Positions 6,030-57,528 of a DNA stretch of 64,000 bases are shown here, in pieces. The stretch comes from a virus (taxonomy: Duplodnaviria; Caudoviricetes), in the IMG/VR virus record IMGVR_UViG_2930666980_000001, positions 1 to 64,000 of that record; one strand, given 5' to 3'. The notes under the pieces are model-generated. The model was not told the DNA's origin. It ran no database searches and saw only the letters and a program-made list of their open reading frames with translations. A program made the translations under genes and the position numbers. Position 1 is the stretch's first letter. Every line of letters starts with the position of its first letter.

Positions 6030-6030
6030 C

Positions 6031-16278: not shown

Positions 16279-16323
16279 TAGCCCATGCCGGCAGGCCGCC
16301 CCCGCCCGACACGGGGGCGGCCC
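16279..16323 (+). repeat. 45-bp intergenic element (copy 2)
   Basis: Identical to 15450-15494. Confidence 0.9.
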
Positions 16324-16356
16324 CGCCGACCAGCAAACCACCAGGAGCACCCACCC

Positions 16357-16842: not shown

Positions 16843-16865
16843 CCACCCAGAAAGCGAGCACCACC

Positions 16866-17297
16866 ATGAACACCACCCGCATGCCGGCCGCCCTGATCGC
16901 AGCCGCCGCCCTCCTCGCCCTCACCGGCTGCACCACGACGACGAAGGCCACCCCGGCCCGCAGCACACCGACGTGCCACGCCGTCCACACCGCCGGGGGC
17001 GACCTCGTCCACGGCGGCCCGCGCCCGTGCCTGCTCACCCGCACCCCGGCGGCCCCCCGCCCCACCGTCACCGTCACGGCGACGCCCCGCCCCACCGGGA
17101 CGGCGATGCCTTCGAGGCCTCCGGCAGCGCACGGGCAGGACCACGCGACGACGGCCCCGACGGGGAAGCCGACCGTCCCCCTGCAGGAGGACCCGGCGAA
17201 GAAGCCGACCGCACCGCTCCGGAAGGACCCGGCCCCCGCGGCGAAGGCCCCGGCCCCGGTGGCGAAGGCCCCCGCCCCGGCACGGCGCGGCCAGTGA
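16866..17297 (+). CDS. Putative lipoprotein, Pro/Thr-rich
   Basis: Signal peptide with lipobox LTGC. Confidence 0.65.
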   Translation: MNTTRMPAALIAAAALLALTGCTTTTKATPARSTPTCHAVHTAGGDLVHGGPRPCLLTRTPAAPRPTVTVTATPRPTGTAMPSRPPAAHGQDHATTAPTGKPTVPLQEDPAKKPTAPLRKDPAPAAKAPAPVAKAPAPARRGQ

Positions 17298-41468: not shown

Positions 41469-42155
41469 GTGTCCCTGTTACTCCTCCTCGCCCTCGTCGG
41501 CGCCGCCGCATACGCCTGGCGCCGCTACAACGACCGCCCCGGCCCCGGTGCCTCCGCCGCCGCCCGCGCCCGCCAGCTCCGCACCCCCCTGGTCCGCCTC
41601 GCCGACCTCCTCGGCATCGACACCCAGGCCGGGCGCCTCGCCCGCCGCTACGACGCAGGCGCGGAGGGAGAGCGGCGAGCAGCCGCCCGCCTCGAGGACC
41701 TGATCCGCGACGGCTGGACGATCCTCTACGACCGCGCCCTCCCGCGCGGCCGGGCGAACGTCGACGCCCTCGCGATCAGCCCGACCGGCGCCGTGTTCCT
41801 CCTCGACCCCAAGAAGTGGACCGGCCGCTTCCCGCTCAGCGTCCGTGCCGGCCGACTCTGGCACGGCAAGGTCGACGTCACCGACCGGCTCGACGGCGTA
41901 CTCCACGAACGCGACACCGTCGCCCGCCTCCTGGACGTCAAGGTCACCACGATCGTCTCCATGGAGGGTCCCCAGCTCGTCGGCCCTCACGGGCGCCCCG
42001 CCACACAGCTCGAGTTCCGGGGCGTCCGGATCGTCCCGGCCGAACGGCTGCCCCACGTCCTCCGCGCCTCCGGCCGGATCCCCGGACAGCGCCGCGCCGC
42101 CGCCCTGGTCGCGACGGCGGAGCGCGTCCTCCCGCACTACCCGCGACGACGGTGA
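41469..42155 (+). CDS. NERD-domain nuclease-like protein with N-terminal TM
   Basis: GAEGE...GW.ILYDR.LP...NVDAL.I.P.G.VFLLDPKKW; TTA at codon 4. Confidence 0.88.
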   Translation: MSLLLLLALVGAAAYAWRRYNDRPGPGASAAARARQLRTPLVRLADLLGIDTQAGRLARRYDAGAEGERRAAARLEDLIRDGWTILYDRALPRGRANVDALAISPTGAVFLLDPKKWTGRFPLSVRAGRLWHGKVDVTDRLDGVLHERDTVARLLDVKVTTIVSMEGPQLVGPHGRPATQLEFRGVRIVPAERLPHVLRASGRIPGQRRAAALVATAERVLPHYPRRR

Positions 42156-42222
42156 AAAGGGACCGAAGGGACTCGACTCGCCGATAGCCTGACCCGACCG
42201 CACCCCCACCGAGGAGCACACG

Positions 42223-42705
42223 ATGGGCGCCTGCCTCACCCCTACTACCGACATGCAGCCCTGGTACAACGTCGAGATCAGCACGAGCCACGCCGAGCTC
42301 ACTGCGACGACCTACCTGCGCGGCTGGTACCGCATCCGTGAGGAAGGCGGCGCGAAGGACTGGCGCGAGATCGCCGACGGCGCCAGCTACACCGACGAGG
42401 AGCGCGCCGCCGCCTGGATCACGTACGGCCCTTCGACGTTCGCCACCCCGGCCGCCCCGGCCGCCGCTCTCCTGGCGACCCTCCAGCAGATCGCCGACCA
42501 CCCGGCCTACGACCGATGGCGGAAGGAGGGCGGCGAGCCGACACCGACCGGCGTCCGCGCCCAGCTCGGCGACGACGGCCGACTCACACTCGTCGGCGCG
42601 TTCATCCGGCACCCGTCCGCCAAGGACGGTGACCACCTGCACAGCGTCGAGGTGTTGTTCAGCGACATCGCGCCTCTGCTCGAGGCCGTCGCACCTCTCG
42701 CCTGA
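42223..42705 (+). CDS. Hypothetical protein
   Basis: RBS gaggag; C-terminus shared with 43342-43707. Confidence 0.7.
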   Translation: MGACLTPTTDMQPWYNVEISTSHAELTATTYLRGWYRIREEGGAKDWREIADGASYTDEERAAAWITYGPSTFATPAAPAAALLATLQQIADHPAYDRWRKEGGEPTPTGVRAQLGDDGRLTLVGAFIRHPSAKDGDHLHSVEVLFSDIAPLLEAVAPLA

Positions 42706-42892
42706 CCGCACCCCTCCCCGAAGGGCCTGCCGGGGAGGGGAGTCAGTCGCCGAGCAGGGCACGGCGGACGAACAGTGTTCCGCCGTCGGTGTGCTGCCCG
42801 TCCTGTTACGGTGATCTAAATCGCCGGTTCGCTGGCGCACCTCCACGCTGCTGGCTATGGGCCGGGCGAGAGGTGAACGCATAGGAGTCCCT

Positions 42893-43345
42893 ATGCCGCT
42901 CGACCTCCCCATGAACGACTCCCACCGCGCGTACGTCCACGCGGTCGCCGCAGCACTCAACGCGGCCGGAGTCCCCATCACTGATGTTGACTTCCTTGAC
43001 GACGTGTTCGATGACGGCGACCCGCTCCGGGGTGCCCTCACCGTCATCGACGCCGCCAGGACGGCCGCCGCTTACCCCGACCGGATGGTCTGGGCGGAAT
43101 GGGACGAGCGGGACGGCTGGGACCTCGCGGTCTACGACCCGAAAACGAAGCTGATCGTGTGCACGCACACCTTGTGCACCGAGGTCCTGCCGGCTCCCGC
43201 TGACGTGGCAGCGACCACCGTCGCCGTGCTCGCCGCGCACCCCTCCGCCTCGACCAAGTTGGAGCGCCCCATCCTCAGCACGTGGAACGAGGCCCTGGAA
43301 GAGGCCCTCGACTCCTACACCCGCACCTCGAAGGAGATGGGATGA
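42893..43345 (+). CDS. DUF6292-like protein
   Basis: HRAYVHAVAAAL...WDERDGW...VLPAPADVA. Confidence 0.6.
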   Translation: MPLDLPMNDSHRAYVHAVAAALNAAGVPITDVDFLDDVFDDGDPLRGALTVIDAARTAAAYPDRMVWAEWDERDGWDLAVYDPKTKLIVCTHTLCTEVLPAPADVAATTVAVLAAHPSASTKLERPILSTWNEALEEALDSYTRTSKEMG

Positions 43346-43707
43346 GCCTGCCCGACTACTTCAAGAATCAGCTGCCGGAGGGCATCCGGCAGATGGTTGA
43401 CCACCCTGACTTCAACCCGTGGGGCGAGATGGTGGACGCCTACACGCACTGGGCGCAGTACACCTATCCGATGGACACAGGGGACGGCGATCCGTCGGAC
43501 ACGATGCTGGCCACTGTCATGGGAGTCGAGCCCATGTCGGTCGAGGTGGGCCAGTCGGTTTGCCTGTACGGAGTGTGGGTTCAGGTGGCGTCTGTGAAAA
43601 CGGAGACAGAGAAGTCGGTCGACGACGGCCGTCTGATCACGTTCCACACGGTCGAGGTCCTGCTCAGCGACATCCCGCCCCTCGACGCCGTCGCACCCCC
43701 CGCCTGA
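43342..43707 (+). CDS. Hypothetical protein
   Basis: ATGA coupling; lower GC3 than neighbours. Confidence 0.65.
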   Translation: MSLPDYFKNQLPEGIRQMVDHPDFNPWGEMVDAYTHWAQYTYPMDTGDGDPSDTMLATVMGVEPMSVEVGQSVCLYGVWVQVASVKTETEKSVDDGRLITFHTVEVLLSDIPPLDAVAPPA

Positions 43708-43833
43708 CCGCACCCCCTCCGAAGGGCCTGCCGGCATCTGCCCGGTGGGCCCTTTCGCATGCCCCGGCCCGCCCGGCCGGCATGGGCTTATCCTTCTGCG
43801 CCGCAAACCGCCCGCAACCAGGGGATTTCGCTC

Positions 43834-44667
43834 ATGACCACAGCCACCTATGTCCGCACGGAGCCGCTCCAGCTCGGCGACCTCTCCCCGTACCCGGGCA
43901 ACGCGAAGAGGGGCGACGTCGGCGCGATCCTCGAATCCCTCTGCCGTAACGGCCAGTACCGCAGCTTGATCGTCCGCGAGGCCCCGCCGGGGGAGTACAC
44001 CGTCCTCGCGGGCAACCACACGCTCCAGGCCCTCGCCGCCCACGGCCCCGGCCCCTGCGGCCTCACCGTCAAGGTCGACGGCGAGGAACGCCCCTGCGCC
44101 GTCTGCCGCGGCGAGGAGTGGGAGCCGCAGGCCCGTTGCGAGATCGTCCACTGCGACGTCGACACCGCCCGCCGCGTGAACCTCGTCGACAACCGCACCG
44201 CCGAGCTCGGCGACTGGGACGAGGAGGCACTCGCCGAGCTCCTCGGCCAGCTCGGCGACGACATGGGCGGGACCGGCTACGACACCGGAGACCTCGAGGA
44301 CCTGCTCACCGCCCTCGAGGACGCGACCGACGCCCCCGACGACGAGGACGAGGACCAGGAGCAGCCCGGCGGCCCCGGCGCCGGTGACGGCGACCGCCCC
44401 GCATCGCCCGGCCCGAACGCGGACGGCACTTCGACGCTCCCGCCCGGCCAAGTGCAGATGGTGCTGACGTACACCGTCGCCGACCGCGACGAGGCCGCCC
44501 GGCTCATCTCCTCCGCCCGCGAGCAGGCATACGAGGCGGCCGGAGCACCGGAGGTCATCCTCAACGCGCTCCGCGGCCTCGCCGCCATCCTCCGCCACCG
44601 CGAACACCCGGACCGCGCCGTCACCGTGGCGCAGCTCCTGCGCGCTGCCGGCATCACCACCGAGTGA
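43834..44667 (+). CDS. ParB/Srx N-terminal domain protein (copy 1)
   Basis: L.PYPGNAKRGDV..I.ESL..NGQYR.L, VLAGNHT, LVDNRTAELGDWD. Confidence 0.88.
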   Translation: MTTATYVRTEPLQLGDLSPYPGNAKRGDVGAILESLCRNGQYRSLIVREAPPGEYTVLAGNHTLQALAAHGPGPCGLTVKVDGEERPCAVCRGEEWEPQARCEIVHCDVDTARRVNLVDNRTAELGDWDEEALAELLGQLGDDMGGTGYDTGDLEDLLTALEDATDAPDDEDEDQEQPGGPGAGDGDRPASPGPNADGTSTLPPGQVQMVLTYTVADRDEAARLISSAREQAYEAAGAPEVILNALRGLAAILRHREHPDRAVTVAQLLRAAGITTE

Positions 44668-44680
44668 AGGCGAGACGACC

Positions 44681-45457
44681 ATGACGACCGTCCTCCTGCC
44701 CCCGCCCACCACGACCCGCCCCGCCGTCCCACGGCCCCGTCGACCACGGCGGCCGAACAGGCTCCTCGGCCAGAACAGCGAGATGCGCGCCGACGGCGTA
44801 TGGAACTGGACGCTCCCGGCCCTCGCGACCCGCCTCCCAGACGGCCGGACCGTCAACACCTGCCCGGCCGCCGGAGTCTGCGCCCTCGCCTGTTACGCGA
44901 GGTCAGGGGCTTACCGCTTCCCCAACGTCGTCGCCCGCCACCAACAGAACCTGGAGTACGTCCTCGACGACCTCCCCGGCTGGCAACGGCAGATGGCGGC
45001 CGAGCTCGCCCACCCCCGATACCGCGGCGGCTGGATCCGCGTACACGACTCAGGGGACTTTTTCAGCGACCACTACCTCGCCGCCTGGCTCCGTCTGATG
45101 GCCTTCCGACCAGCCGTTTCCTACTACTGCTACACCAAGGAAGTCCGGCGGTTCCGCCGTCTCGTCGAGCCCGCTCCGCCCCGCAACTTCCGCTGGGTCT
45201 ACAGCAAGGGCGGCAAGGAGGACCACCTCCTGCGGCCGGGCGACCGCGTCGCCGACGTCTTCACCGACGACGCCGCGATCAGGGCAGCGGGCTACCACTC
45301 CCAGGACGCCAGCGACCTCCTCGCCGTCCTCGGCCCCGCCCCCGTCGGCATCCCGGCGAACAACATCCCCCAGTACCGGAAGCGCATGGCCGGCAGGAGC
45401 TTCGGCGAATGGCAGGCAGAGCGCGACGCCAAGCGCGCCAGCAGGCACCCCGGCTGA
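44681..45457 (+). CDS. Phage Gp88-family protein (Cys triad, radical-SAM-like)
   Basis: TCPAAGVCALACYA, IRVHDSGDFFS, YCYTK. Confidence 0.85.
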   Translation: MTTVLLPPPTTTRPAVPRPRRPRRPNRLLGQNSEMRADGVWNWTLPALATRLPDGRTVNTCPAAGVCALACYARSGAYRFPNVVARHQQNLEYVLDDLPGWQRQMAAELAHPRYRGGWIRVHDSGDFFSDHYLAAWLRLMAFRPAVSYYCYTKEVRRFRRLVEPAPPRNFRWVYSKGGKEDHLLRPGDRVADVFTDDAAIRAAGYHSQDASDLLAVLGPAPVGIPANNIPQYRKRMAGRSFGEWQAERDAKRASRHPG

Positions 45458-45536
45458 CCCTCCGTCTGCTCGCCGGGAGGGCCCGACGGGCCATGCCCTT
45501 ATCCTTCTGCGCCCCGCCCGCACCGAACCCGTGGAT

Positions 45537-46502
45537 ATGACCATGAGCCAGGCCACATACGTACGAACCGCCGAAGTCCCCATCGACCGACTCCAGCTCT
45601 TCCCCGGCAACGCGAAGAAGGGCGACATCCCGGCCATCCTCGACAGCCTCCGCCGCAACGCCCAGTACCGGTCGGTCGTCGCGCGGCAGCAGAAGAAGAC
45701 CCTCACGATCCTCGCGGGCAACAACACGCTCCTTGCCCTCCGCGAGCACGGCCCCGGCGACTGCGGCGTCACCTTCACCAGCGGAGGCGAGACCCTCCCG
45801 TGCGGCCTCTGCCGCAACACCGCGGCGTACAAGCCGACCCTCCGCACGGAGGTCTACGAGTGCGACGACGACACCGCCCGCCGCATCAACCTCGCCGACA
45901 ACAAGACCAGCGACGCCGGCACGTATGACGATGCTGCGCTGGCCGAGCTGCTCTCTGGCCTCGACGGCCTCGAGGGCACGGCGTACGACACCGACGAGCT
46001 CGACGAGCTCCTGAAAGCGACCGGCGCCCTCGGCGACGCCAGCAGCGAGTTCCTCAACTCCTTCATCGACCCGGACCCGCAGCCGACACCCACGCAGCCC
46101 GTGCCGGCAGGCGCCCCGGCCCTCAACCCGTTCTCAGCCGCTGACGTCCCGGCCGGGGCCCCGCAGACCGGCCCGGCCTCCTCGCTCCCGCAGACGGCCG
46201 CAGAAGGCGACCAGGAGCCCGCGACGGCGACCGCCCCGGCCCCGCACTCCCCGGGCGTCCACACCGGCCCGGAGGCCTACAGCGGCCCCGGCGCCCGCAT
46301 GCACCCCGGTGACCCCATCGCCCTCCCCGAGACGCCGCAGATGGTCCCGCTGCAATGGGTGTTCACCCTCGATCAGCGCGACACCGTCCGCGCCGCGATC
46401 AAGGCCGAGCAGGCAGCCGGAGGCCACGACACCGCCGCCCTCGCCCTCACCGCCATCTGCCGCGCCTACGTCGACGCCGCGACCCCCAGCGAGGACCAGT
46501 GA
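45537..46502 (+). CDS. ParB/Srx N-terminal domain protein (copy 2)
   Basis: FPGNAKKGDI..I.DSL..NAQYR, ILAGNNT, LADNKTSDAGTYD. Confidence 0.88.
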   Translation: MTMSQATYVRTAEVPIDRLQLFPGNAKKGDIPAILDSLRRNAQYRSVVARQQKKTLTILAGNNTLLALREHGPGDCGVTFTSGGETLPCGLCRNTAAYKPTLRTEVYECDDDTARRINLADNKTSDAGTYDDAALAELLSGLDGLEGTAYDTDELDELLKATGALGDASSEFLNSFIDPDPQPTPTQPVPAGAPALNPFSAADVPAGAPQTGPASSLPQTAAEGDQEPATATAPAPHSPGVHTGPEAYSGPGARMHPGDPIALPETPQMVPLQWVFTLDQRDTVRAAIKAEQAAGGHDTAALALTAICRAYVDAATPSEDQ

Positions 46503-47593
46503 CCGACCTCTCCCTGCTCCGCGGCCACCGCTGGCCCCCACACCCGACCCCCCAGGCCAACCACGCCGTCACGTCCGCCCTGTACTCCAGGGAGTGGACC
46601 GGCGGCCGGTACACCCGGGCCGCCGAGGACGCCCTCCGCGAACTGACCGGCGCCCCGCACGCCGTGGCGTTCCAGTCCTGCACCGCCGCGATCCACGCCG
46701 CGCTCCTCGCACACGGCGCCCGAGACGGCACCCCGCTCCACACCCCTGCCTTCGGCTTCGCCGGCACGCTCACCGGTGCCTCGCACATCGGGATGCGCCT
46801 GCTGTACCACGACGTCGACCCGGACACGGGCAACAGCATCGACCCGGCTGCAGCACCCGGCGCCCTCGTCCTCACCCCGGACCTGCACGGAGTGCCCCAC
46901 ACCCTGCCCCGCGCCGACGTCATCACCGACGCCTGCCAGGCCCTCGGCACGCTCGTCGACGGCCGGCACGTCGGAGCCGTCGGCACGCACTGCTGGTCGT
47001 TCTCGGCGACCAAGCTCGTCAGCGCCCCCGACGGCGGAGCCGTGACGACCGAAGACGAGGGCCTCGCCGACATCCTGCGGCAGCTCCGCGACTACGGAGC
47101 CGAGCCCGGGCCCGCCCGCGCCAACGCGAGGATCACCCGGCCCGGGCACAACTGGCGGCCCTCCGAACTGTCGATGGCGCTCGTCGCGGAGGAACTGACC
47201 TACCGCCTGCCCGACGCCGCCGCCCGCGCCCGCGAGGTCGGCGAGCAGGTACGCCAGACCCTCGCCGACGTCGGCCTCTGGCACCAGCAGGTCCCTGCCG
47301 GCACCGAACCGGCCTTCCACAAGCTCCGCACCGGCCTCCCCGGCCAGAGCACGACCGCCCTCCGCGCGGCCCTCGCCGGTCTGAACGTCCCCACCCACGA
47401 CTGGGGACGCCACCCGCTCCCCACGCACCCGCAGTTCTGGGAGCCCGGCCCGGAGCCGGACATCGCCGCGGCGGCCGAGCTCGCTGCCGGCACCTTCTGC
47501 CTGGGCACCGAAGCCTGCCCGCCCTGGACCTGGACGGCGGACGAGACAGACCTCGTCTGCATCACCATCGAAACGATCATGGAGTCCCTGTGA
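46499..47593 (+). CDS. DegT/DnrJ/EryC1/StrS PLP-dependent aminotransferase
   Basis: SCTAAIHAAL, DACQALG, SFSATKLVSAPDGGAV (PLP lysine), GHNWR. Confidence 0.92.
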   Translation: MTDLSLLRGHRWPPHPTPQANHAVTSALYSREWTGGRYTRAAEDALRELTGAPHAVAFQSCTAAIHAALLAHGARDGTPLHTPAFGFAGTLTGASHIGMRLLYHDVDPDTGNSIDPAAAPGALVLTPDLHGVPHTLPRADVITDACQALGTLVDGRHVGAVGTHCWSFSATKLVSAPDGGAVTTEDEGLADILRQLRDYGAEPGPARANARITRPGHNWRPSELSMALVAEELTYRLPDAAARAREVGEQVRQTLADVGLWHQQVPAGTEPAFHKLRTGLPGQSTTALRAALAGLNVPTHDWGRHPLPTHPQFWEPGPEPDIAAAAELAAGTFCLGTEACPPWTWTADETDLVCITIETIMESL

Positions 47594-48699
47594 ACCGCAC
47601 CGCCCGCATCGGCATCATCGGCGTCGGCAACTGCGCCCGCGCCCTCCTCGAGGGCATCGGCTACTACACCGCGCACCCGGAGGACGAGACCGGCCTCTCC
47701 CACCCGGTCATCGGCGGATACACCCCGGCCGACGTCGAGCCCGTCGCCGCCTGGGACGTCGACGCCGACAAGGTCGGCCGCAACCTCTGGGACGCCCGCA
47801 CCGCAGGACAGAACCTCGACGTCGGTATCCCGCAGGGCGACCTCAAGCCCGTCGGCCTGGACGTCACCGTGCAGCCTGCTCCCGCCCTCGACGGTGCCGG
47901 CATCAAGTACCGGGAGCGCATCACCACCGTCGAGGACACCGAGGAGCTCCCCGAGCAGGAAGCCGCCCGGATCCGCGCGGAGATCCTCGCGTCCGGCGTC
48001 CAGGTCCTCGTCAACTACCTGCCCGTCGGCTCGCAGAAGGCCACCGAGTGGTGGGCGCAGATCGCCCTCGACACCGGCGTCGCCTTCGTCAACAACATCC
48101 CCGTCTTCATCGCCCGCAACGAGGAGTGGCGCGCCCGCTTCCGTGACGCGAACCTTCCGCTGATCGGCGACGACATCAAGAGCCAACTCGGCGCGACGTA
48201 CGTGCACCGCGTCCTCGCCCGCGCGTTCTCCGACCGGGGCATCACCCTCGACCGGACGTACCAGCTGAACGTCGGCGGCAACATGGACTTCTACAACATG
48301 CTCGAGGCCGACCGCCTCGCCACGAAGCGCGTGTCCAAGTCGTCCGCCGTCACCGACGCCTACGCCGGAGACCTCGAGCCCGGCAACGTCCACATCGGCC
48401 CCTCCGACTACGTCGCCTTCCTCGGCGACACGAAGAAGGCGTTCATCCGCTGCGAGGGCCGCGGCTTCGCCGGAGCCCGCATCGACATGGAGATGCAGCT
48501 CACCGTCCCCGACTCCCCGAACAGTGCCGGCATCGTCATCGACGCCGTGCGCATCGCGAAGACCGCCCTCGACCGCGGCGAAGCCGGGGCCGACCAGTGG
48601 GCCTCAGCCTGGCTCTTCAAGGCCCCGCCGCGCACCGTCGCCGAGGACAGCGACGGCGAAGCCCGCCGCCGCCTCGACGCCTGGCTGAACGAGGCCTGA
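47590..48699 (+). CDS. ino1: Inositol-3-phosphate synthase (MIPS)
   Basis: GVGNCA, NYLPVGS, GDDIKSQLGAT, YQLNVGGNMDF, HIGPSDYV, DSPNSAG..IDAVR. Confidence 0.96.
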   Translation: MNRTARIGIIGVGNCARALLEGIGYYTAHPEDETGLSHPVIGGYTPADVEPVAAWDVDADKVGRNLWDARTAGQNLDVGIPQGDLKPVGLDVTVQPAPALDGAGIKYRERITTVEDTEELPEQEAARIRAEILASGVQVLVNYLPVGSQKATEWWAQIALDTGVAFVNNIPVFIARNEEWRARFRDANLPLIGDDIKSQLGATYVHRVLARAFSDRGITLDRTYQLNVGGNMDFYNMLEADRLATKRVSKSSAVTDAYAGDLEPGNVHIGPSDYVAFLGDTKKAFIRCEGRGFAGARIDMEMQLTVPDSPNSAGIVIDAVRIAKTALDRGEAGADQWASAWLFKAPPRTVAEDSDGEARRRLDAWLNEA

Positions 48700-48700
48700 C

Positions 48701-49501
48701 ATGCGACGAGTCCTCAAAGCCAAGTCCGCGTACAGCAACGACGACGTCCAGCGCGTATGGGAGTCGATCACCGACTACGTCACCGAGGAGGAGGCGGCCC
48801 AAGCCGTCGAGGAGGCGGCAGCGGAAACCCGCCTCGTCCTCGACGGCCGCACCGACGACGCCGTGTACGGCTGGTCAGGCGGCAAGGACTCGATCGCCCT
48901 CGAGGTCGTGATGGAGCGTGCCGGGGTCCGGCGCGCCCTCCTCGGCACGCTCCCGCACCTCGAGTTCACCGCCTACATGACGTGGGTCGACGAGCACCAG
49001 CCCGACGGCCTCACCCACCTCGGCAACAAGGCCATCACCCCGGCCTGGCTCGCCAAGCCGCAGAACGACCGCTACCTCTTCCCCACCTCCAGCACCGACG
49101 GCTACCGCTGGACGATGATCGGCACCCGCTGGTCCCAACACCTCTACCAGGAGCAGCACAAGCCCCGACTCCAGGTCTACGGACGCCGGACCGCCGACGG
49201 CAACAGCATCCCCGCCACCCCGTACGGCATCCACAAGACGAGCCGCCTCACCTCGTACTGCCCGATCCGCGCCTGGTCGCACGAGCTCGTCCTCGCCGTC
49301 ATCCACTACAACCGGCGTCCCCTGCCGCCCGTGTACGGCTTCCCGAACGGCTGGAAGACCGGCACAGGCTCCTGGCCCGGGCGCCGCGTCGGCGACCGCG
49401 ATGCCTCCTTCGCCGAGACGTACGCGATCGAGCCCGCCCTCCTGCAGAACGCCGCCCCGGACCTGCCGGCAGCGGCCGACTGGCTTCGCCGCAACACCTG
49501 A
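48701..49501 (+). CDS. PAPS-reductase-family PP-loop protein
   Basis: WSGGKDS, YGRRTADG, PIRAWS..LV. Confidence 0.85.
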   Translation: MRRVLKAKSAYSNDDVQRVWESITDYVTEEEAAQAVEEAAAETRLVLDGRTDDAVYGWSGGKDSIALEVVMERAGVRRALLGTLPHLEFTAYMTWVDEHQPDGLTHLGNKAITPAWLAKPQNDRYLFPTSSTDGYRWTMIGTRWSQHLYQEQHKPRLQVYGRRTADGNSIPATPYGIHKTSRLTSYCPIRAWSHELVLAVIHYNRRPLPPVYGFPNGWKTGTGSWPGRRVGDRDASFAETYAIEPALLQNAAPDLPAAADWLRRNT

Positions 49502-49532
49502 CACCACCACGTCCAGCGTGGGGAAGGACTAC

Positions 49533-50912
49533 ATGACCGATTGGCTCTCAGGCGGCTGGCTCCCGGAGGGGACGCCCATCGATGCCGAGCACGTCCGCGG
49601 CTACGTCGCCAAGTTCACCCTTCCCCGCCTCGCTGCCGGCAGCGACGTCTACACCCTCGCCTGCGAGCGCATGGCGTACGTCCTCGACCACCACGACCGG
49701 GCCTTCGTCGCGTTCTCCGGCGGGAAGGACTCGACGGCCGTCCTCAACGTCGCCCTCGAGGTCGCCAACCGGGAGCCCCGCCTACAGCGTCACCTCCCGC
49801 TGCGCGTCGTCTTCTTCGACGAGGAGGCGATCCCGCAGGAGACCGAGGACTACGTCCGGCGCGTCTTCGCCCGGCCCGACGTCGCCGGTGAATGGCTCTG
49901 CCTGCCCGTCCAGCACCGCAACGCCTGCTCCAGGACGTCCCCGTACTGGTGGCCCTGGGCGCCGGAGGACGAGCCGAAGTGGTGCCGCCCCCTCCCGCCG
50001 GAGGCGATCACGACCCTGCCCGGCTTCCCCGTCTGGCCCCCGGAGGAGCGCCTCACGATCCCGAACCTGAACGGCCTCCTCGCGCCGCCCCCGCACACCA
50101 CGGCCACGCTCATGGGGATCCGCGCGCAGGAGTCCCGGATCCGGGCCCTCGCCGTCCGCCGCCGCGCCGTCGACAACTACATCGTCAAGCACGCCCACGG
50201 CCGGGACCGGCAGGCCGCCGCCGTCGACAACGGCAACGTCTGGAAGGCCTACCCGATCTACGACTGGCGGACCGAAGACGTCTGGGCCGCCGCACGCGTC
50301 CACGGCTGGGACTACAACAAGGCCTACGACCTGATGGAGATGGCGGGGGTCACACCCGCCATGCAGCGCTGCTCACCCGCGTTCGGCGAGGAGCCCCTGC
50401 AGAAGATCCACATGTACGCCCAGTGCTTCCCCGACGTCTGGGCACGGATGTCCGAGCGCGTCCCCGGCGTCGGCGCCGCAGCCCGCTACGCGTCCACCGA
50501 GCTCTACGGCTTCGGCGCCAAGAAGCCCGAGAAGCCCGCCGGCATGCCCTGGCCGGAGTTCATCACCCGCTACCTCGCCAAGCACGGGCCGAAGGAGCAG
50601 CGCACCATCGCGGCCCGGATCAGCGAGGCCCTCACCCGGCACTACCGGATGACCACCGACCCGATCCTCCCGCGGTCGCCTCACCCGGTCACCGGCCTCA
50701 ACTGGAAGTACCTCCTCGTCCTCGCCATGCGCGGCGACTTCAAGCACCGCCGCCAGGAGGTCAAGCAGCTCATGGACGGTGACGCCGCCTCGTACTGGCG
50801 GAAGTACACCGCCGAGCTCGCCGAGCTCCTCGCCGCCGGGGTCACCGCCGACGAGCTCGGCCACCCCCGCCCGCTCCCCACCGACCCCCACGCGCTCACC
50901 CCGACCACCTGA
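49533..50912 (+). CDS. IbrA/YbdN-like PAPS-reductase-family protein (copy 1)
   Basis: VAFSGGKDS, FFDEE, WLCLP, MGIRAQES..R, YPIYDWRTEDVW, DYNKAYDLM. Confidence 0.92.
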   Translation: MTDWLSGGWLPEGTPIDAEHVRGYVAKFTLPRLAAGSDVYTLACERMAYVLDHHDRAFVAFSGGKDSTAVLNVALEVANREPRLQRHLPLRVVFFDEEAIPQETEDYVRRVFARPDVAGEWLCLPVQHRNACSRTSPYWWPWAPEDEPKWCRPLPPEAITTLPGFPVWPPEERLTIPNLNGLLAPPPHTTATLMGIRAQESRIRALAVRRRAVDNYIVKHAHGRDRQAAAVDNGNVWKAYPIYDWRTEDVWAAARVHGWDYNKAYDLMEMAGVTPAMQRCSPAFGEEPLQKIHMYAQCFPDVWARMSERVPGVGAAARYASTELYGFGAKKPEKPAGMPWPEFITRYLAKHGPKEQRTIAARISEALTRHYRMTTDPILPRSPHPVTGLNWKYLLVLAMRGDFKHRRQEVKQLMDGDAASYWRKYTAELAELLAAGVTADELGHPRPLPTDPHALTPTT

Positions 50913-50936
50913 ACCAGCAGGAAGGACATCGGCGAC

Positions 50937-52325
50937 ATGACCACCGACCAGCCGGACGGCTGGCTGCCCGAGGGACAGCGGCTCGACGTCTACGACACCG
51001 ACTACGTCCCCAAGCAGAACCGGCCCCGCCTCGCCGCACGGGCCGACGTCTGGACCATGGCGTGCGAGCGCATGGCCTACGTCCTCGACACCCATGACCG
51101 GGCCTTCGTCTCGTTCTCCGGCGGGAAGGACAGCACGGCCGTCCTGAACGTCGCCCTGCACGTCCTGAACCGTGAGCCGTCGCTGCGCCGGCATCTCCCG
51201 CTCAGGGTCGTCTTCTTCGACGAGGAGGCCATCCCGCAGGAGACCGAGGACTACGTTCGCCGCGTCGGGCAGCGCGACGACGTCAGCCTTGAGTGGTACT
51301 GCCTGCCCGTCCAGCACCGCAACGCCTGCTCGAGGCGGTCGCCGTACTGGTGGCCCTGGGCGCCGGAGGACGAAGCGAAGTGGTGCCGCCCCCTCCCACC
51401 GGAGGCCCTCACGTCCCTGCCCGGCTTCCCCCTCTGGCCCCCGGAGGCGCGCCTCACGATCCCGAACCTCAACGGGCTCCTCGGCCCGGCGCCGCACACC
51501 ACGGCCTGCCTCATGGGGATCCGCGCGCAGGAGTCCCTCATCCGCGCGCACGCCGTCCGGCTCCGCTCCGTCGACAACTACATCGTCAAGTACGACAACT
51601 CGAAGAACCGGCAGGCCGCTTCGGTCAACCACGGCAACATGTGGAAGGCCTACCCGATCTACGACTGGCGCACCGAAGACGTCTGGGCGGCGACCCGCCT
51701 GCACGGCTGGGACTACAACAAGGCCTATGACCTGATGGAGATGGCCGGCATCGGCCCGTCCGGTCAGCGCTGCTCACCGGCCTTCGGCGAGGAGCCCCTC
51801 CAGAAGATCCACATGTACGCGCAGTGCTTCCCCGACGTCTGGGGGCGTATGGCCGAGCGCGTCCCCGGCATCGGCGCCGCCTACCGCTACGCCCGCACCG
51901 AGCTCTACGGCTACGGAGGGAAGCCCCCCAAGCCTCCGGGGCAGACCTGGCCGGAGTTCATCGCCCACTACGTCCGGAAGCACGGCCCCGACGTCCAGCC
52001 GAAGGTGGCCGGCAGGATCGCCGACGTCATGGCCCGGCACTACCGGAAGACGGCGCACCCGATCCTCCCGAAGGCCCCGCACCCGGACACCGGCCTCAAC
52101 TGGTCCTTCCTCCTGACCCTCGCGATGCGCGGCGACTTCAAGCAGCGCCGGCAGGAGTCCAACCAGCTCATGTCCAAGAGCACGGCCGAGCACTGGACGC
52201 GGTACACCACCGAGCTCGCCCAGGTCCTCGCCGACGGCACCGGCCCGGAGCTCGGCCACCCCCGCCCCCTCCCGACGGACGCGTACGCGATCGTCCCCGA
52301 CCAGTACAAGGAGCCCACCCAGTGA
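50937..52325 (+). CDS. IbrA/YbdN-like PAPS-reductase-family protein (copy 2)
   Basis: Same motifs as copy 1; closely similar tandem paralog. Confidence 0.92.
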   Translation: MTTDQPDGWLPEGQRLDVYDTDYVPKQNRPRLAARADVWTMACERMAYVLDTHDRAFVSFSGGKDSTAVLNVALHVLNREPSLRRHLPLRVVFFDEEAIPQETEDYVRRVGQRDDVSLEWYCLPVQHRNACSRRSPYWWPWAPEDEAKWCRPLPPEALTSLPGFPLWPPEARLTIPNLNGLLGPAPHTTACLMGIRAQESLIRAHAVRLRSVDNYIVKYDNSKNRQAASVNHGNMWKAYPIYDWRTEDVWAATRLHGWDYNKAYDLMEMAGIGPSGQRCSPAFGEEPLQKIHMYAQCFPDVWGRMAERVPGIGAAYRYARTELYGYGGKPPKPPGQTWPEFIAHYVRKHGPDVQPKVAGRIADVMARHYRKTAHPILPKAPHPDTGLNWSFLLTLAMRGDFKQRRQESNQLMSKSTAEHWTRYTTELAQVLADGTGPELGHPRPLPTDAYAIVPDQYKEPTQ

Positions 52326-52867
52326 CCACCCCGGCCGCCCCGTTCCGCGCCCCTGTCGGCGCCGACCAGCAGCCCGTCAGCGCCGTCCAGTGGATGCCGC
52401 GCGAGCAGCTCACCGCGAATCAGTGGAACCCCAACGTCCAGGCGCCCCCGGAGCACCGCCTCTTGAAGACGTCACTCCTCGAGAACGGATGGACGCAGCC
52501 GATCGTCGCCCGCGACCAGGCCGACGGCACGTACGAGGTCGTCGACGGCTTCCACCGCTGGACGATCGCCGCAGACCCGGACGTCGCCGCCCTCTCCGCC
52601 GGGCTCGTCCCCGTCGTCGTCCTCCCGCCCACGGACGCCGCGACGGCCCGGATGGCGACCGTCCGGCACAACCGGGCCCGCGGTACCCACCACGTCCTCG
52701 GCATGGCGGAGATCGTCACTGACCTCCTCGAGCTCGGCGTCACCCCGGCCGACATCAGCGCCCGCCTCGAGATGGACCCGGAGGAGGTCGACCGCCTCGC
52801 CGACCGGGGCAACATGATCGCCCGTCACGCCCCGGAGACCTTCAACCAGGGCTGGACCGTCGGCTAA
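52322..52867 (+). CDS. IbrB/YbdM-like ParB-domain protein
   Basis: ANQWNPN, SLLENGWTQPIV, VVDGFHR, ATVRHNRARGTH. Confidence 0.92.
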   Translation: MTTPAAPFRAPVGADQQPVSAVQWMPREQLTANQWNPNVQAPPEHRLLKTSLLENGWTQPIVARDQADGTYEVVDGFHRWTIAADPDVAALSAGLVPVVVLPPTDAATARMATVRHNRARGTHHVLGMAEIVTDLLELGVTPADISARLEMDPEEVDRLADRGNMIARHAPETFNQGWTVG

Positions 52868-52928
52868 CCGCCGGCACGCCCCTACGGCCCCACCCAGCCC
52901 CCGCCCCGCTACCTACAGGAGCAGACGC

Positions 52929-53654
52929 ATGCCCAACACGATGAAGGTCGCCCCGGACGACGAGAACGAGGTCCACGACGTCCTCGCCTTCCGCGACCCC
53001 GGCAACTGTCACGTCACCCCGGTCCTCCAGCTCCCCCCGGACATCGCCCTCGCGATCACCGACCGCCTCCGGCACCTGGTGCAGTCCGCGCACCGCTCCC
53101 CGGCCGCGACGAGCCCCGACGCCGACGGGATCACACGGGCGCAGACCTTCGAGGAGGGCGACGTCTACATGCTCGCCGCCCCGTACGAGCAGTACGAGGC
53201 AGACCGGTACCTCATGGACTTCTACGACGTCATCGACCGCGACATCTGCTCACGGATGCACCTGCACACCGGTCTCCGCTTCGTACGGATGATGACTGGC
53301 CCCGACACCCGCATCCGCGTCAGCAGCCTCGCCCCGATCCGGGTAACCGACGTCGACGGCGTCACCACCTTCCGCCCGGAGACCTTCGAGGACGACCACC
53401 CCGACGTCCCCGCCGGACACCAGCGGACCCGCTACAACCTCGTCGTCCCCCCGAACTCCTGGGCCGACATGCAGGTCCCGCGCGGCGTCTCCCACCAGTT
53501 CAACGCCCACGGCCCCCACGCCGTCATCGACTCCGTCCACCCGGAGGAGTCCATCGAGACGTTCCGCGAGCGCATGAGCGGCTTCAAGATGATGGCGCAG
53601 ACGATCTTCCTCGCCGACGAGCAGCCCGCCGCCGACTCCTGCCGACTCACCTGA
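52929..53654 (+). CDS. Putative cupin-fold metalloprotein
   Basis: SRMHLHTG...VPRGVSHQF...SVHPEE His pattern; RBS aggag. Confidence 0.6.
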   Translation: MPNTMKVAPDDENEVHDVLAFRDPGNCHVTPVLQLPPDIALAITDRLRHLVQSAHRSPAATSPDADGITRAQTFEEGDVYMLAAPYEQYEADRYLMDFYDVIDRDICSRMHLHTGLRFVRMMTGPDTRIRVSSLAPIRVTDVDGVTTFRPETFEDDHPDVPAGHQRTRYNLVVPPNSWADMQVPRGVSHQFNAHGPHAVIDSVHPEESIETFRERMSGFKMMAQTIFLADEQPAADSCRLT

Positions 53655-54021
53655 CCCGTCCCACGCGGCCCCTCGACGACCGCGCCCCTACGGCCCGCCC
53701 CGGAGACCCCCGCGGCGGGCCGTCCCCGTCCACGGCCCTCTGACCAGGCCCGGGGCTATCCTCTCTCGCCGCCGACCACCCGCGACCAGGGGAGCCCCGC
53801 AATGACCCGCACCCCCCTACCGCACCCCTCGCCCACCCTCCACCGGGTACCCCCGCACCCTCCACACCCCTACGCCGACCCACCGCACCGACCCCGCGCA
53901 CGCCCCGACCCCCACCAAGATCAACACCGCCCGCCACATACACCCAGGTCAACAGCCCACGCCCGCTAGTTGAAACACAAACGTGGACACAAACCCGCCC
54001 CCACGAGACGAGGAGAGACCC

Positions 54022-54453
54022 ATGGGCGCCTCCCCCCGGCAACGACTGTCCGCCGTCGAGCGCCGCACCCAGGCCCTACAGCTGCACCTGGCGTGCGTCG
54101 ACCTCCGCACCATCGCGAAACAGGTCGGCTACGCCGACGCCTCCGCCGCCAAGAAGGCCATCGACCGCGCCATCGCGGACAGCATCGCCCGCGGCGAAGA
54201 GAAGATCGACGACATCCGGCGCGAGCAGATCATGCGGTACCACCGTCTCCAGGCCGCCCACTGGGGCAAGGCCATCAAGGGCGACACCAAGGCGAGCGAC
54301 ATCGTCCTCAAGTGCATGCAGGGCACCGAGCGCCTCCAGGACCTCGCCTCGCCCAAGCGCATCAGCATCGACGCCCAGAAGCTCGGCGACGAGATCCTCG
54401 CCATCCTCGGCGACGATGCCGGCAGCGACGACGAGGCCGGAGCAGCGCCGTGA
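54022..54453 (+). CDS. terS: Terminase small subunit-like HTH protein
   Basis: ERRTQALQL...LRTIAKQVGY; directly upstream of the large subunit. Confidence 0.75.
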   Translation: MGASPRQRLSAVERRTQALQLHLACVDLRTIAKQVGYADASAAKKAIDRAIADSIARGEEKIDDIRREQIMRYHRLQAAHWGKAIKGDTKASDIVLKCMQGTERLQDLASPKRISIDAQKLGDEILAILGDDAGSDDEAGAAP

Positions 54454-54495
54454 CCGACCAGTCCGGCCGGTCCCGGCCGGGGGAGGGGCGACAGG

Positions 54496-56118
54496 ATGCC
54501 GACCACCGAGGAGATTGAGCGCCAGGTCCTCGCGCTCGTCCGGGCGGGCGACGTCGCGACGCTCCGCCTGGTCCGGGACCGTCTCGCCTCGCGGCGTAGC
54601 AGCGCGTCCGCCCAGCGGGCCGTCAAGTACATGTACGACCCTGTCGGCTGGGTACGGGACGTCATCGACTGGCAGCCCGGGGAAGGGCTCGCCGCCTACC
54701 AGGAGGACGTCCTCAGCCTGCTCGCCAGGGAGCGCCGTGTCGCGGCCCGCGGACCGCACGGTCTGGGGAAGACCGGCATGGCCGCGCTCGGCGTCCTCTG
54801 GTTCGCGACGACCCGCGACGCTGCCGGCATCGACTGGAAGGTCCTGACGACCGCCTCCGCCTGGCGGCACCTCTCCGTCTACCTGTTCCCGGAGATCCAC
54901 AAGTGGGCGAGGCGCATCAAGTGGGAGATGCTCGGCCGCCCGCCGTTCCGGGAGAACGCCGAGCTCCTGGTCCACAACATCAAGCTCAGGTACGGGGCGG
55001 CGTCCGCGGTCGCCTCGACGAAGCCGGAGCTGATCGAGGGCGCGCACGCGGACAGCCTGCTCTACCTGATCGATGAGGCGAAGATCGTCCCCGATGGCAC
55101 CTGGGACGCCATTGAAGGGGCCTTCTCCGGCGGTAAGACGTCCGGGCTCCCGGAGGCCTTCGTCTTCGCTATCTCGACGCCTGGGCCCCCGTCAGGGCGC
55201 TTCTACGACATCCACAGCAGGAAGCCGGGGTTCGAGGACTGGTTCGTACGGCACGTCACCCTCGCTGAGGCGGTCGCTGCCGGCCGGATCTCCCCAGACT
55301 GGGCGGAGCAGCGCGCCCGCCAGTGGGGGCGAGACTCCGCGATCTACGCCAACCGTGTCCTCGGCGAGTTCCACGCGTCCGACGAGGACAGCGTCATCCC
55401 CCTGTCCTGGGTCGAGGCCGCCGTCGAGCGCTGGCACCTGTGGGACCAGGCCGGGCGGCCGGCACTCGAGGGGCGTCAGTTCCTCGGCGTCGACGTCGCA
55501 CGCGCCGGGGGAGACTCCACCGTCCTCGCGTACCGGACCGGCCTCGCGTACACCGAGCTCGAGACGCACGACCGCGAGGACACCATGGAGACGACCGCCC
55601 GCGTCCAGGCCGCCGTGGGCCGCCGCCCGGGCACCGTGCCGGTCGTCGACTCGATGGGCGTCGGCGGTGGCGTCGTCGACCGCCTCAGGGAGCTCGACGA
55701 GCCGGTCCTCGCCTACACCGGAGCAGCGAAGTCCCGCATGCGGTCGAGAGACGGAGAGTGGGGCTTCAACAACACCAGGAGCGCCGCCTACTGGCGCACC
55801 CGGGAGCTCCTCGACCCCGCTTTCGACCCGACGCTGATGCTCCCGCCGGATGACCTCCTGCTCGCCGACCTGACCGCCCCGACATGGGCGGTCAAGACCG
55901 GCCGCCCCCCGACGATCCAGATCGAGCCGAAGGACGACCTGATCAAGCGGCTCGGCCGCTCCCCCGACCGTGGGGACGCCGTCGTGATGGGCCTGTACGC
56001 CGAGCTGCTCGCCTCGACGACCGTGCAGAACCCGGCCAGGGCCGGCACGGGCAGCACGGCCGCAGCCAGCAAGTACGGGCGAACCATCGGCGGCACGTCG
56101 GCGGCACGAGGCCGGTGA
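54496..56118 (+). CDS. terL: Terminase large subunit
   Basis: Walker A GPHGLGKT, Walker B LIDEA, ISTP, LGVDVAR..GDST, SPDRGDA. Confidence 0.95.
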   Translation: MPTTEEIERQVLALVRAGDVATLRLVRDRLASRRSSASAQRAVKYMYDPVGWVRDVIDWQPGEGLAAYQEDVLSLLARERRVAARGPHGLGKTGMAALGVLWFATTRDAAGIDWKVLTTASAWRHLSVYLFPEIHKWARRIKWEMLGRPPFRENAELLVHNIKLRYGAASAVASTKPELIEGAHADSLLYLIDEAKIVPDGTWDAIEGAFSGGKTSGLPEAFVFAISTPGPPSGRFYDIHSRKPGFEDWFVRHVTLAEAVAAGRISPDWAEQRARQWGRDSAIYANRVLGEFHASDEDSVIPLSWVEAAVERWHLWDQAGRPALEGRQFLGVDVARAGGDSTVLAYRTGLAYTELETHDREDTMETTARVQAAVGRRPGTVPVVDSMGVGGGVVDRLRELDEPVLAYTGAAKSRMRSRDGEWGFNNTRSAAYWRTRELLDPAFDPTLMLPPDDLLLADLTAPTWAVKTGRPPTIQIEPKDDLIKRLGRSPDRGDAVVMGLYAELLASTTVQNPARAGTGSTAAASKYGRTIGGTSAARGR

Positions 56119-56389
56119 GTAGGCGCACGGCCCTCGCTACTGCTCGCCGTCTGGCCGGCAGTGGCAGGGGCCGCCATTGTGCAGATGGGCCAGGTCCTCC
56201 GGGTCGAGCACGTAAGGCGCTTCGGCGCTGCCGTCACCGATCAACCGAACACCGTCCACCTCGTGCACGATGTCGGCCAAGGCTTCGTCCAGGGGGTGTG
56301 ACATGTCGAGCTCCTCGCTGGGATGTCGTCCACGGGCCGACGCTAGCAATCGACGGTACAAGCTGGTGGCCGTCCGGCAGACTGGCACC

Positions 56390-56650
56390 GTGAAGCTTCC
56401 CCGCGTGGAGTGCCCGAAGTGCGAGCGGCCGACGGCTGTTGCTCCGATGGCCGGATCGCTGACGAAGGGCCGCCTGTGGCGGCACGACGACGCCAACGCG
56501 CGCCGGGACGCTGACGGAGACCTCGTGTCCTGTAGCGAGTCGCTGAGCACCGTCGACCTGCCGGAGATGGGCCGTCAGATGGAGCTCGACCTCGACGCGG
56601 AGAGCGCCGACCCCGCCACCGACGAGGAGCCCGCCCTCGCCCTGTTCTGA
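56390..56650 (+). CDS. Small Zn-binding protein
   Basis: PRVECPKC...WRHD...SCSES. Confidence 0.6.
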   Translation: MKLPRVECPKCERPTAVAPMAGSLTKGRLWRHDDANARRDADGDLVSCSESLSTVDLPEMGRQMELDLDAESADPATDEEPALALF

Positions 56651-57189
56651 CGCGCAGCTACCGGGGCGAGCCCTCGCCTCTCGTACGGCAGTGGTCGAGC
56701 ACGGGGCGAGGAACGAACATCGTTCCCTCGGCGACGATCTCGCCGCCGTCCGTGGTCCGGTAGACCTCCGTGTTGAGCCCGTCCCCCGTCTCGACCTGGA
56801 CGGCGCGGGCCGGGTGAGGCCGCGTGTCGGGGCGGAGGGCTGCGAGCAGTACGTCATGGTCCACGTGCCGACTGTAGGCCAACGAGTAGCGGGCCCCCAG
56901 GGGACGCGAATCCTGGGGGCCCGCGGGGCCCGGCCGCACTCCGGGCCGGAGGTGCCGGCAGCTGCAGGGTGTGTGCGCCTGCGCCGCCCGGGCACTGCAT
57001 CGGCATAGCTGCCCGGCACCTCGCGGCGAGGAGAGTACACGCCCCGGCATCCTGGGAATGATCAGAATTGCGGGGCCTCGACCCCCACCCTTGATCAGAT
57101 TCACGGCAGTTGACCTTGGGATCGACGGAACGCGGTTGCCTTATAGTGCTCCGCCGACCACCCACGAAGATCGTCACCAAGGGGCGAAC

Positions 57190-57528
57190 ATGATCACTGC
57201 CTGGGAGCTCGCCCTCCTCGCCTTCGCCGGATACCGCGGGACACAGCTCGCCGTCCACGACACCATCCTCGACCCCGCCCGCGACCGCATCCACGAGTGG
57301 CACGAAGCCCGACCGGAGTCCCGCACGCGGGAGTTCGTCGTCTCGCTGATTTCCTGCGTCTACTGCATGGGCTGGTGGATCTCCGGCGCCCTCCTCGCCA
57401 CGTACCTGGTCGCCACCGACCACTGGGCCGGCACGCCCCTCCTGGTCCACGGCATCGAGTGGCTCGCCGTCGCCGGGGCCGCCGTGATCCTCAACCGGGT
57501 GGACGACACCCTCGGACGCCTCGCGTGA
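57190..57528 (+). CDS. DUF1360-like membrane protein
   Basis: YRGTQL..HDTILDP.R...LISCVYCMGWW. Confidence 0.8.
   Translation: MITAWELALLAFAGYRGTQLAVHDTILDPARDRIHEWHEARPESRTREFVVSLISCVYCMGWWISGALLATYLVATDHWAGTPLLVHGIEWLAVAGAAVILNRVDDTLGRLA

Follow-up and report, generated by a model that had tools for sequence, protein, structure and literature searches.

The IMG/VR record IMGVR_UViG_2930666980_000001 raises the question of what a phage may do with a myo-inositol-3-phosphate synthase (MIPS) homologue and an aminotransferase that are encoded among PP-loop and ParB-like proteins shortly before its terminase. We analysed the first 64 kb (here called the window) of this 101,757-bp record, which is a provirus according to its IMG/VR class. 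Ten tightly packed genes, all on the + strand (43834-53654), encode in this order ParB-like protein 1, a GP88-family protein, ParB-like protein 2, a DegT-family aminotransferase, MIPS, a small PP-loop ATP-pyrophosphatase-like protein (PPs), the two related proteins IbrA1 and IbrA2, IbrB and a cupin. An initial annotation had regarded these genes as a candidate system that makes an aminocyclitol and attaches it to DNA. The explanation that we prefer, and to which we give a little less than an even chance, is that they are a precursor-fed variant of a widespread phage cassette of PPs, IbrA and IbrB, with or without a further ParB-like protein, that precedes the packaging genes.

To describe the cassette as such, we searched with a PPs profile and obtained 33 loci (28 viral and 5 from genomes; single loci are numbered with an L below). 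IbrA is also encoded in 31 of them, nearly always together with IbrB; as to the other two, one contig ends early, and L032 has no IbrA or IbrB match within the flanks. The usual order is a variable gene followed by PPs-ParB-IbrA-IbrB-terS-terL-portal, and the G+C content of the cassette loci ranges from 37 to 72%. IbrA matches 223 phage records, and the IbrA/IbrB pair often lies beside the terminase. MIPS and DegT were present in 6 of the 33 loci, which represent four distinct elements. Since they are missing from the remaining 27, the ten genes are one version of a cassette that is very widespread, and not a system that stands alone; DegT and MIPS are an add-on of a subclade found in actinomycete phages.

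Within this subclade, the four viral contigs on which a close MIPS relative was found (65-81% identity) all have the order DegT-MIPS-...-PPs-IbrA-IbrB. When metagenomes were scanned with a DegT profile, 67 loci came up, of which eight fall in the DegT clade (at least 40% identity) and 59 are more distant. Four of the eight clade contigs are cut at DegT, and DegT-MIPS-insert-PPs is present on all four that have downstream sequence (L050, L051, L053 and L054). L053 and L008 are one element, and L050 and L051 are near-identical. MIPS was found nearby in none of the 59 more distant loci. About seven independent elements, the window included, share the core, and among members with a readable context the DegT clade was found solely in this cassette. 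ParB-like protein 2 is kept upstream of DegT in L005, L006, L007, L049 and L052. The initial annotation had tied MIPS and DegT to the PP-loop and ParB genes and had named a lack of co-occurrence in other genomes as refuting; the search was made, and the genes occur together in all eight related loci with visible context. The initial interpretation is partly supported: MIPS and DegT belong to the PPs-IbrA-IbrB/ParB cassette as an integral addition that probably supplies a precursor.

The genes that accompany this core are not always the same. The insert between MIPS and PPs encodes a Methyltransf_24 protein in L050 and L054 (E about 1e-21) and a glycosyltransferase of family GT25 in L051 (E 2e-5) and, twice, in L008; in L007, GT25 was recognised only by BLAST to those proteins. 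The L008 insert also encodes a protein with a sub-threshold match to NTP_transf_3 (E 0.016). In a cluster of 13 loci, PPs is accompanied by an SSF sodium:solute symporter (PF00474 matched three of five members tested, and two shorter members gave no match). Such symporters lie directly upstream of PPs in many cassettes, for example in L012 (7478-9196) and L021 (8483-9976); in L008 one lies upstream of DegT (4983-6533), and here symporter and MIPS/DegT are found together. The variable slot is also occupied by NMT1/THI5-like proteins in L031 (8795-9724) and L036 (6487-7476), by an Ldh_2 dehydrogenase in L035 (10666-11670), by a GATase_6-like protein with a Cupin_2 protein in L025 (10723-12449) and by a small Cupin_2 protein in L023 (8734-9165), which is translationally coupled between ParB and PPs. 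These occupants fit core enzymes that are fed by an imported or a home-made small molecule. We also noticed in L023 a DUF7873 protein (5951-6682, E 2e-97), 1.3 kb upstream of the ParB-Cupin_2-PPs-IbrA-IbrA-IbrB cassette.

Phylogenetic trees were compared for PPs and IbrA. In the PPs tree, a single clade with a long stem (SH-aLRT 100, length 1.4) holds all eight MIPS-type loci. Three changes are required on the IbrA tree, where L023, which lacks MIPS, is placed inside the MIPS-type group and L008 outside it. Judged from these few events, PPs may thus move together with the supply genes and be the component that sets the specificity.

What chemistry the cassette could perform was examined through its PP-loop proteins. 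IbrA1 (49518..50912, 464 aa; PF01507 E 1.4e-10, PF11922 E 4.2e-8, phrog_2302 E 3e-79) and IbrA2 (50937..52325, 462 aa; PF01507 E 1.8e-12, PF11922 E 3.8e-7) both consist of PAPS_reduct and DUF3440 domains and are 74% identical to each other. PPs (48701..49501, 266 aa; phrog_424 E 5e-9) has no Pfam match; it lacks DUF3440 and is paralogous to the N-domain of IbrA (hhalign against the IbrA profile: 95.8%, E 7.6e-9). The SGGKDS motif that had been reported for three PP-loop genes was indeed found in all three proteins. It is invariant in five PPs sequences, which have no invariant Cys at all. Among 23 IbrA sequences the invariant residues are SGGKD, DEE, R196, E199, R203 and YDW; a single Cys is near-invariant, being Ala in two of the 23, and none is invariant in the C-terminal half. 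CysH, the PAPS reductase proper, has a C-terminal catalytic Cys, and the IbrA sequences do not have the corresponding residue. Searches of PDB sequences with the PPs profile and with IbrA2 gave nothing usable. The scores with the DndC model TIGR03183, whose cut-off is 290.4, were 26.7 and 27.1 bits, and the analogy to DndC drawn at the outset is therefore weak. Since IbrA and PPs have no conserved set of Cys residues, Dnd-like sulfur chemistry is unlikely, and iron-sulfur or persulfide chemistry as in DndC, TtuA or LarE likewise appears unlikely for both proteins. The chemistry that remains is an adenylation after which a nucleophile, nitrogen or oxygen, attacks; the ligation of an amine would be a plausible form of it. 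The partner IbrB (52322..52867, 181 aa; ParB/Srx domain, ParB_N PF02195 E 5.6e-7, phrog_2159 E 2.4e-57) carries the motifs DGxHRW and NRARG, which are invariant among 15 sequences.

We then considered the two enzymes that may supply a precursor. MIPS (47590..48699, 369 aa; PF01658 E 2.2e-31, 108.7 bits, cut-off 27) and Ino1 of M. tuberculosis align from end to end (1gr0, E 1.9e-98, query 5-354), whereas the match of MIPS to Ari2, a five-membered-ring cyclitol synthase (6k96), is much weaker (E 1.6e-48). With 369 bits it stays below the cut-off of 638 of the NCBIfam equivalog TIGR03450 (mycothiol_INO1), and it is thus a divergent member and not the housekeeping orthologue. It is predicted to make myo-inositol-3-phosphate from glucose-6-phosphate. 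The aminotransferase (46499..47593, 364 aa; PF01041 E 4e-43, 148.5 bits) belongs to the pyridoxal phosphate (PLP)-dependent DegT/DnrJ/EryC1/StrS family. Its PLP lysine, Lys172 in an SFSxxK motif, and Asp144 are invariant in 15 aligned clade members, and 69 cluster representatives are related to it at 41-96% identity, after which the scores fall abruptly. The best solved relative is the nucleoside diphosphate (NDP)-sugar aminotransferase ArnB (1mdo, E 6.8e-22), as against E 1.2e-12 for a glutamine--scyllo-inositol transaminase (7b0d). Both are distant, and because of these two values the substrate class of DegT cannot be read from its sequence.

The GP88 protein and the cupin had been counted among the members of the cluster. 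Both genes are present, but they are loosely attached to it. The GP88 protein (44681..45457, 258 aa; PF17338 E 3.6e-55) belongs to a family of 2242 cluster representatives with the invariant residues C61, C67, C71 (Cx5Cx3C), R120, H122, G125, D126 and K153. Its model is of high confidence (pLDDT 93.3), and Foldseek found no match to it in the PDB at E<=1e-3; sequence searches of solved structures with the single sequence and with the profile gave nothing usable, and an NCBIfam scan of 36 members returned noise only. In a wide VIA search, 16 of the top 17 chains were radical SAM proteins with Z 4.8-6.7, which is below the safe level of the tool; spore photoproduct lyase (Z 6.7), viperin (6.4) and QueE (6.0) were the leaders, and BtrN followed at rank 19 (Z 4.8). 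BtrN is a radical-SAM cyclitol dehydrogenase. The canonical signs of radical SAM proteins are missing from GP88, whose motif is CX5CX3C and not CX3CX2C and which has no PF04055 match. As a lead only, the modelled fold suggests that GP88 may have a divergent barrel of the radical-SAM kind and be an unrecognised, non-canonical radical-SAM-like phage family. Its gene follows terS in L050 and L051, lies among the head genes in phage Gilgamesh and was not found in the flanks of L007 and L008. In L050 the homologue 3' of terS consists of two overlapping pieces (16225-16479 and 16464-16922), which may reflect a frameshift or an assembly error.

For the cupin (52929..53654, 241 aa; phrog_28683 E 3.6e-121), Pfam cupin models gave no match, yet the AlphaFold model (pLDDT 86.9) has a cupin fold, in agreement with the initial call. 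VIA aligned 112-137 residues to many cupins with Z 9-10, and the top Foldseek match was the E. coli sugar isomerase Z5688 (3mpb, E 1.5e-5, TM ~0.37). His111, His113, His189 and His204 are invariant and include the HxH...H motif of a metal site. A sequence search of solved structures gave nothing usable, and the Protein Atlas returned weak leads (0.82, Asp_Arg_Hydrox) under the meaningful level. The family is unusually conserved: there are 472 homologues, the best 120 of which are all at least 67% identical and come from organisms ranging from actinomycetes, including Rhodococcus, to Deinococcus. Two Streptomyces relatives (P0092 and P0099), which go by the name of acyl carrier protein, are longer (332 and 344 aa) and have a PF00550 domain. 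Among the MIPS-type elements, the cupin was found in the window, L005 and L006 only. In phage PJN03 it follows the portal gene, and the same genome has ParB-ParB-PAPS reductase before the terminase. Membership of the cupin in the cassette is uncertain. In L023, where ParB, Cupin_2 and PPs are joined by 4-bp overlaps, and in L025, PPs is coupled to small Cupin_2 proteins that are unrelated to this cupin, and cupins as such therefore recur with the PPs-IbrA-IbrB cassette.

Whether the cassette acts on DNA was judged from its ParB-like proteins and its position. ParB-like proteins 1 (43834..44667, 277 aa; phrog_723 E 2.3e-47) and 2 (45531..46502, 323 aa; phrog_723 E 2e-39) had been annotated as such, and this holds with PHROGs, although Pfam ParB_N gives no match to either. 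The three ParB-like proteins match the N-terminal domain of the phrog_498 ParB-DNA-methyltransferase fusions (E 5e-24, 8e-18 and 6e-13); in ParB-like protein 1, residues 18-203 align to the N-terminal part of the phrog_498 'DNA methyltransferase' (E 4.8e-24). Phages that are unrelated to each other have the cassette at the head of their packaging operon. In the Streptomyces phage TurkishDelight (L003, NC_073473.1), the genome end that abuts the terminase carries ParB-ParB-methyltransferase-GATase-methyltransferase (8491-13519), which bears out, at an equivalent place, the expectation that ParB-like and modification-type genes are found together near the terminase. DpdB of the Dpd system and DndB of the Dnd system are ParB-family proteins whose partners are enzymes that modify DNA (PMC12839542). 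In addition, Stenotrophomonas phage Marzo (L042, MZ326868.1) encodes an independent MIPS homologue, 40% identical to that of the window, inside a 7-deazaguanine DNA-modification cluster (6086-11609) with the order GTP cyclohydrolase (FolE), hypothetical, MIPS, hypothetical, QueC-like, TGT, QueC-like. MIPS of the Marzo type was found in sixteen Stenotrophomonas phage records.

A palindrome, TGCCGGCA, was considered as a target site of the cassette and dropped, as the related loci rarely have it (two copies in L005, five in L006, none in L007 and L008). It occurs 49 times in the window (2183-63878), where 1.9 copies are expected, and 74 times in the 101-kb record, compared with 0-5 copies per 21 kb in cassette-bearing relatives. 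The palindrome accounts for 74 of the 168 GCCGGC sites of the record. GCCGGC itself is not strongly depleted there (168 sites, 210 expected), while it is strongly depleted in L006, L007 and L028, with 8, 16 and 3 sites compared with about 43, 43 and 29 expected from base composition.

These observations could be connected as follows. By homology, MIPS would convert glucose-6-phosphate to myo-inositol-3-phosphate. Dephosphorylation and oxidation of a hydroxyl to a ketone might then be carried out by host enzymes or possibly by the cupin or GP88, which is a speculative step. DegT, judged by its family and its strict pairing with MIPS, would aminate the ketone to an inosamine-type aminocyclitol. 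The PP-loop proteins would use ATP to adenylate an oxygen, which may belong to a base carbonyl or to a carboxylate that a pre-modified base carries, and AMP would then be displaced by the amine; this step is modelled on TilS, GMP synthase and QueC and is suggested by the conserved SGGKDS and the lack of a Cys or iron-sulfur apparatus. PPs would probably be the component that is matched to the precursor. The ParB-like proteins would direct the enzymes to a nucleic acid, which is most likely replicated phage DNA before packaging, and in the relatives the GT25 glycosyltransferases and the Methyltransf_24 enzyme would tailor the adduct. We tentatively suggest, with considerable doubt, that a base of the phage DNA carries an inositol-derived amine (inosamine), glycosylated or methylated in relatives, which is installed after replication through ParB-guided adenylation by PPs and IbrA.

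Several points weigh against this proposal. DNA is the likely target by analogy, on the grounds of position and of the ParB-methyltransferase precedents, and RNA, nucleotides or a free metabolite are possible targets as well; to our knowledge, the base-modifying PP-loop enzymes that have been characterised, with the exception of DndC, act on tRNA or free metabolites only. A single clade of MIPS-type IbrA proteins was not rejected by the approximately unbiased (AU) test (p 0.074). The MIPS-type cassettes possibly all derive from one acquisition, and their co-occurrence could be co-inheritance. By sequence, DegT is nearer to NDP-sugar aminotransferases such as ArnB than to the scyllo-inosose transaminase of known structure. 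In the 101-kb record, PF00459 (inositol monophosphatase), PF01408 (GFO/IDH/MocA dehydrogenase) and PF04055 (Radical_SAM) were unmatched, each search giving positive controls in 14 of 14 reference genomes. The earlier remark that no inositol dehydrogenase is visible is therefore confirmed for the whole record and extends to the phosphatase, and the ketone for DegT would have to come from host enzymes or an unrecognised activity, unless DegT uses a different substrate. In phages Cr30 and RP13, MIPS occurs without IbrAB, surrounded by hypothetical proteins only. Finally, the cluster does precede terS and terL, but to place it directly upstream of them, as was done initially, is slightly generous, since 367 bp separate the cupin from terS.

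The same genes could make a free small molecule, an aminocyclitol conjugate such as an amide or glycoside, for host takeover, signalling or competition. PPs and IbrA would then be adenylate-forming metabolite ligases, and the ParB/Srx-fold proteins would be NTP-using enzymes and not DNA binders. It is true that MIPS and DegT together with GT25 and Methyltransf_24 resemble natural-product logic, that many cassettes come with an SSF importer or a solute-binding-type NMT1/THI5 protein and that most PP-loop enzymes work on metabolites. The position before terS/terL is, however, constant in phages of 37-72% G+C, one to three ParB-like proteins with phage kin that include ParB-DNA-methyltransferase fusions are always present, and a related phage has a DNA-methyltransferase cassette at the same place; we consider a free product somewhat unlikely. 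RNA (tRNA or other) or the nucleotide pool might also be the target of a TilS- or QueC-like modification that aids late translation or blocks host defence. TilS, QueC and GMP synthase provide precedents for a PP-loop enzyme and an amine acting on tRNA or nucleotides, and E. coli IbrAB have been described genetically as activators of gene expression. Their SEED label is 'coactivators of prophage gene expression' (PMC5874904). We found no tRNA-related gene among the domain matches of the cassette, in which no dedicated tRNA scan was made, and partners of the ParB type are known from DNA systems (Dpd and Dnd). A target of this kind seems unlikely.

It could further be supposed that the ParB-like proteins and IbrA/IbrB serve packaging or late regulation, through pac-site recognition, nicking or activation, and that MIPS, DegT, GP88 and the cupin have nothing to do with them and are metabolic morons, such as an inositol boost for mycothiol or phosphatidylinositol. 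MIPS is indeed a close, fully alignable relative of host-type Ino1, other phages carry MIPS alone, and GP88 and the cupin are found at other places in Gilgamesh and PJN03. On the other hand, the DegT-MIPS-PPs order and its translational coupling are kept in 8 of 8 visible loci, the tie to a private PPs clade is not expected of morons, and the invariant PP-loop with its acidic and basic residues argues that IbrA is an enzyme, which makes this explanation quite improbable. Sulfur modification as in Dnd (a phosphorothioate or a thio-base) is suggested by the PAPS_reduct family with a ParB-like partner, which recalls DndC and DndB, and by weak NCBIfam matches to DndC and LarE. It appears very improbable indeed in view of 26-27 bits with a DndC model that demands 290, the absence of a cysteine desulfurase and of DndD/E, and the Cys pattern described above, with one near-invariant Cys in IbrA and none in PPs.

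If an inosamine is in fact installed on the phage DNA, it would add a new chemical class to the DNA hypermodifications and give a first biochemical function to the IbrA/IbrB cassette, other variants of which would attach other imported or home-made amines. The cassette is among the commonest uncharacterised gene sets that head phage packaging operons, and in most variants its substrate is unknowable from sequence, for example where only an importer is encoded. Because the phage of the window encodes its own precursor pathway, the origin of the adduct (glucose-6-phosphate via inositol) and its mass become predictable. The hosts are culturable actinomycetes of the Streptomyces type, and thus the chemistry of the cassette is directly testable. 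A product on DNA would matter for the evasion of restriction, for sequencing artefacts and for enzyme tools. A literature search, outside which supplementary gene lists lay, returned no study of the biochemistry of IbrA/IbrB or DUF3440, or of phage MIPS in DNA modification. The paper on phage Ps15 lists a MIPS gene whose origin is probably bacterial (PMC9025141).

As for the setting of the locus, the window has a G+C content of 72% and almost every gene lies on the + strand. One relative, L037, is located in Streptomyces sp. NRRL B-1347. The closest database proteins come from genomes labelled Streptomyces or Kitasatospora (DegT, 96% identity; cupin, 95%), and the terminase has 75.5% nucleotide identity to that of TurkishDelight, which was the sole match when the cassette region was compared with phage records by megablast. 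Gene identities were taken from Pfam, PHROGs and NCBIfam. That there are ten co-oriented genes is real: frame plots of the G+C content at third codon positions (GC3) give a single clear reading frame for each, and the arrangement is no product of chance, as it recurs in further independent elements. The start of the cluster had been put at 43781, which reads CAT and is no start codon; ParB-like protein 1 (GC3 0.94) begins at ATG 43759 or, favoured by GC3, at ATG 43834. Overlapping start and stop codons were found as described before, with 4-bp overlaps at three gene pairs (ParB-like protein 2/DegT, DegT/MIPS and IbrA2/IbrB), and MIPS and PPs are separated by a gap of 1 bp. The small terminase gene terS (54022..54453, + strand; GC3 0.93) is kept after the cassette in L005, L006, L007, L050 and L051, and it is followed on the same strand by the large terminase gene terL (54496..56118), which gives the nucleotide match to TurkishDelight. 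A promoter and terminator scan of 42000-57500 gave no promoter-like sites and six terminator-like sites against 3.7 expected, and no operon boundaries came from it.

The locus can be set beside several known systems. The IbrA/IbrB pair (phrog_2302 'PAPS reductase' and phrog_2159 'ParB-like') is known from the ECOR-9 island of E. coli; IbrAB were a subject of Sandt et al. The window shares with the pair the direct coupling of a ParB_N protein to one with PAPS_reduct and DUF3440 domains, but it has two IbrA proteins, a PP-loop paralogue without DUF3440, two extra ParB-like proteins, MIPS and DegT. The aminocyclitol branches of streptomycin and hygromycin A biosynthesis comprise MIPS, a phosphatase, an inositol dehydrogenase and a DegT/StsC-type aminotransferase. 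Here too MIPS adjoins a DegT-family aminotransferase; in contrast, the element has no phosphatase or dehydrogenase, it is part of a phage late operon and not of a biosynthetic gene cluster, and its DegT shows no specific closeness to the scyllo-inosose transaminase whose structure is solved. In TilS, QueC and GMP synthase, a PP-loop enzyme adenylates an oxygen and an amine displaces AMP, the substrates being tRNA or nucleotides. The proposed adenylation of a carbonyl or carboxylate oxygen, with an amine displacing AMP, would follow the same course, although the proteins of the window are related to these enzymes at the level of the PP-loop superfamily only. With DndC and DndB, which act on DNA (PMC12839542), the window shares a PP-loop ATPase of the PAPS-reductase superfamily and a ParB-superfamily partner; it differs in its scores far under the DndC cut-off and in having neither the conserved Cys cluster nor DndA/D/E. 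The hypermodification cassettes of phage DNA (DpdA/DpdB of Dpd, the ParB-methyltransferase fusions and TurkishDelight) use other catalytic enzymes, such as a TGT, a methyltransferase or a kinase, which the cluster does not have, but like the cluster they have ParB-like proteins next to base-modifying enzymes, in the same position with respect to the terminase.

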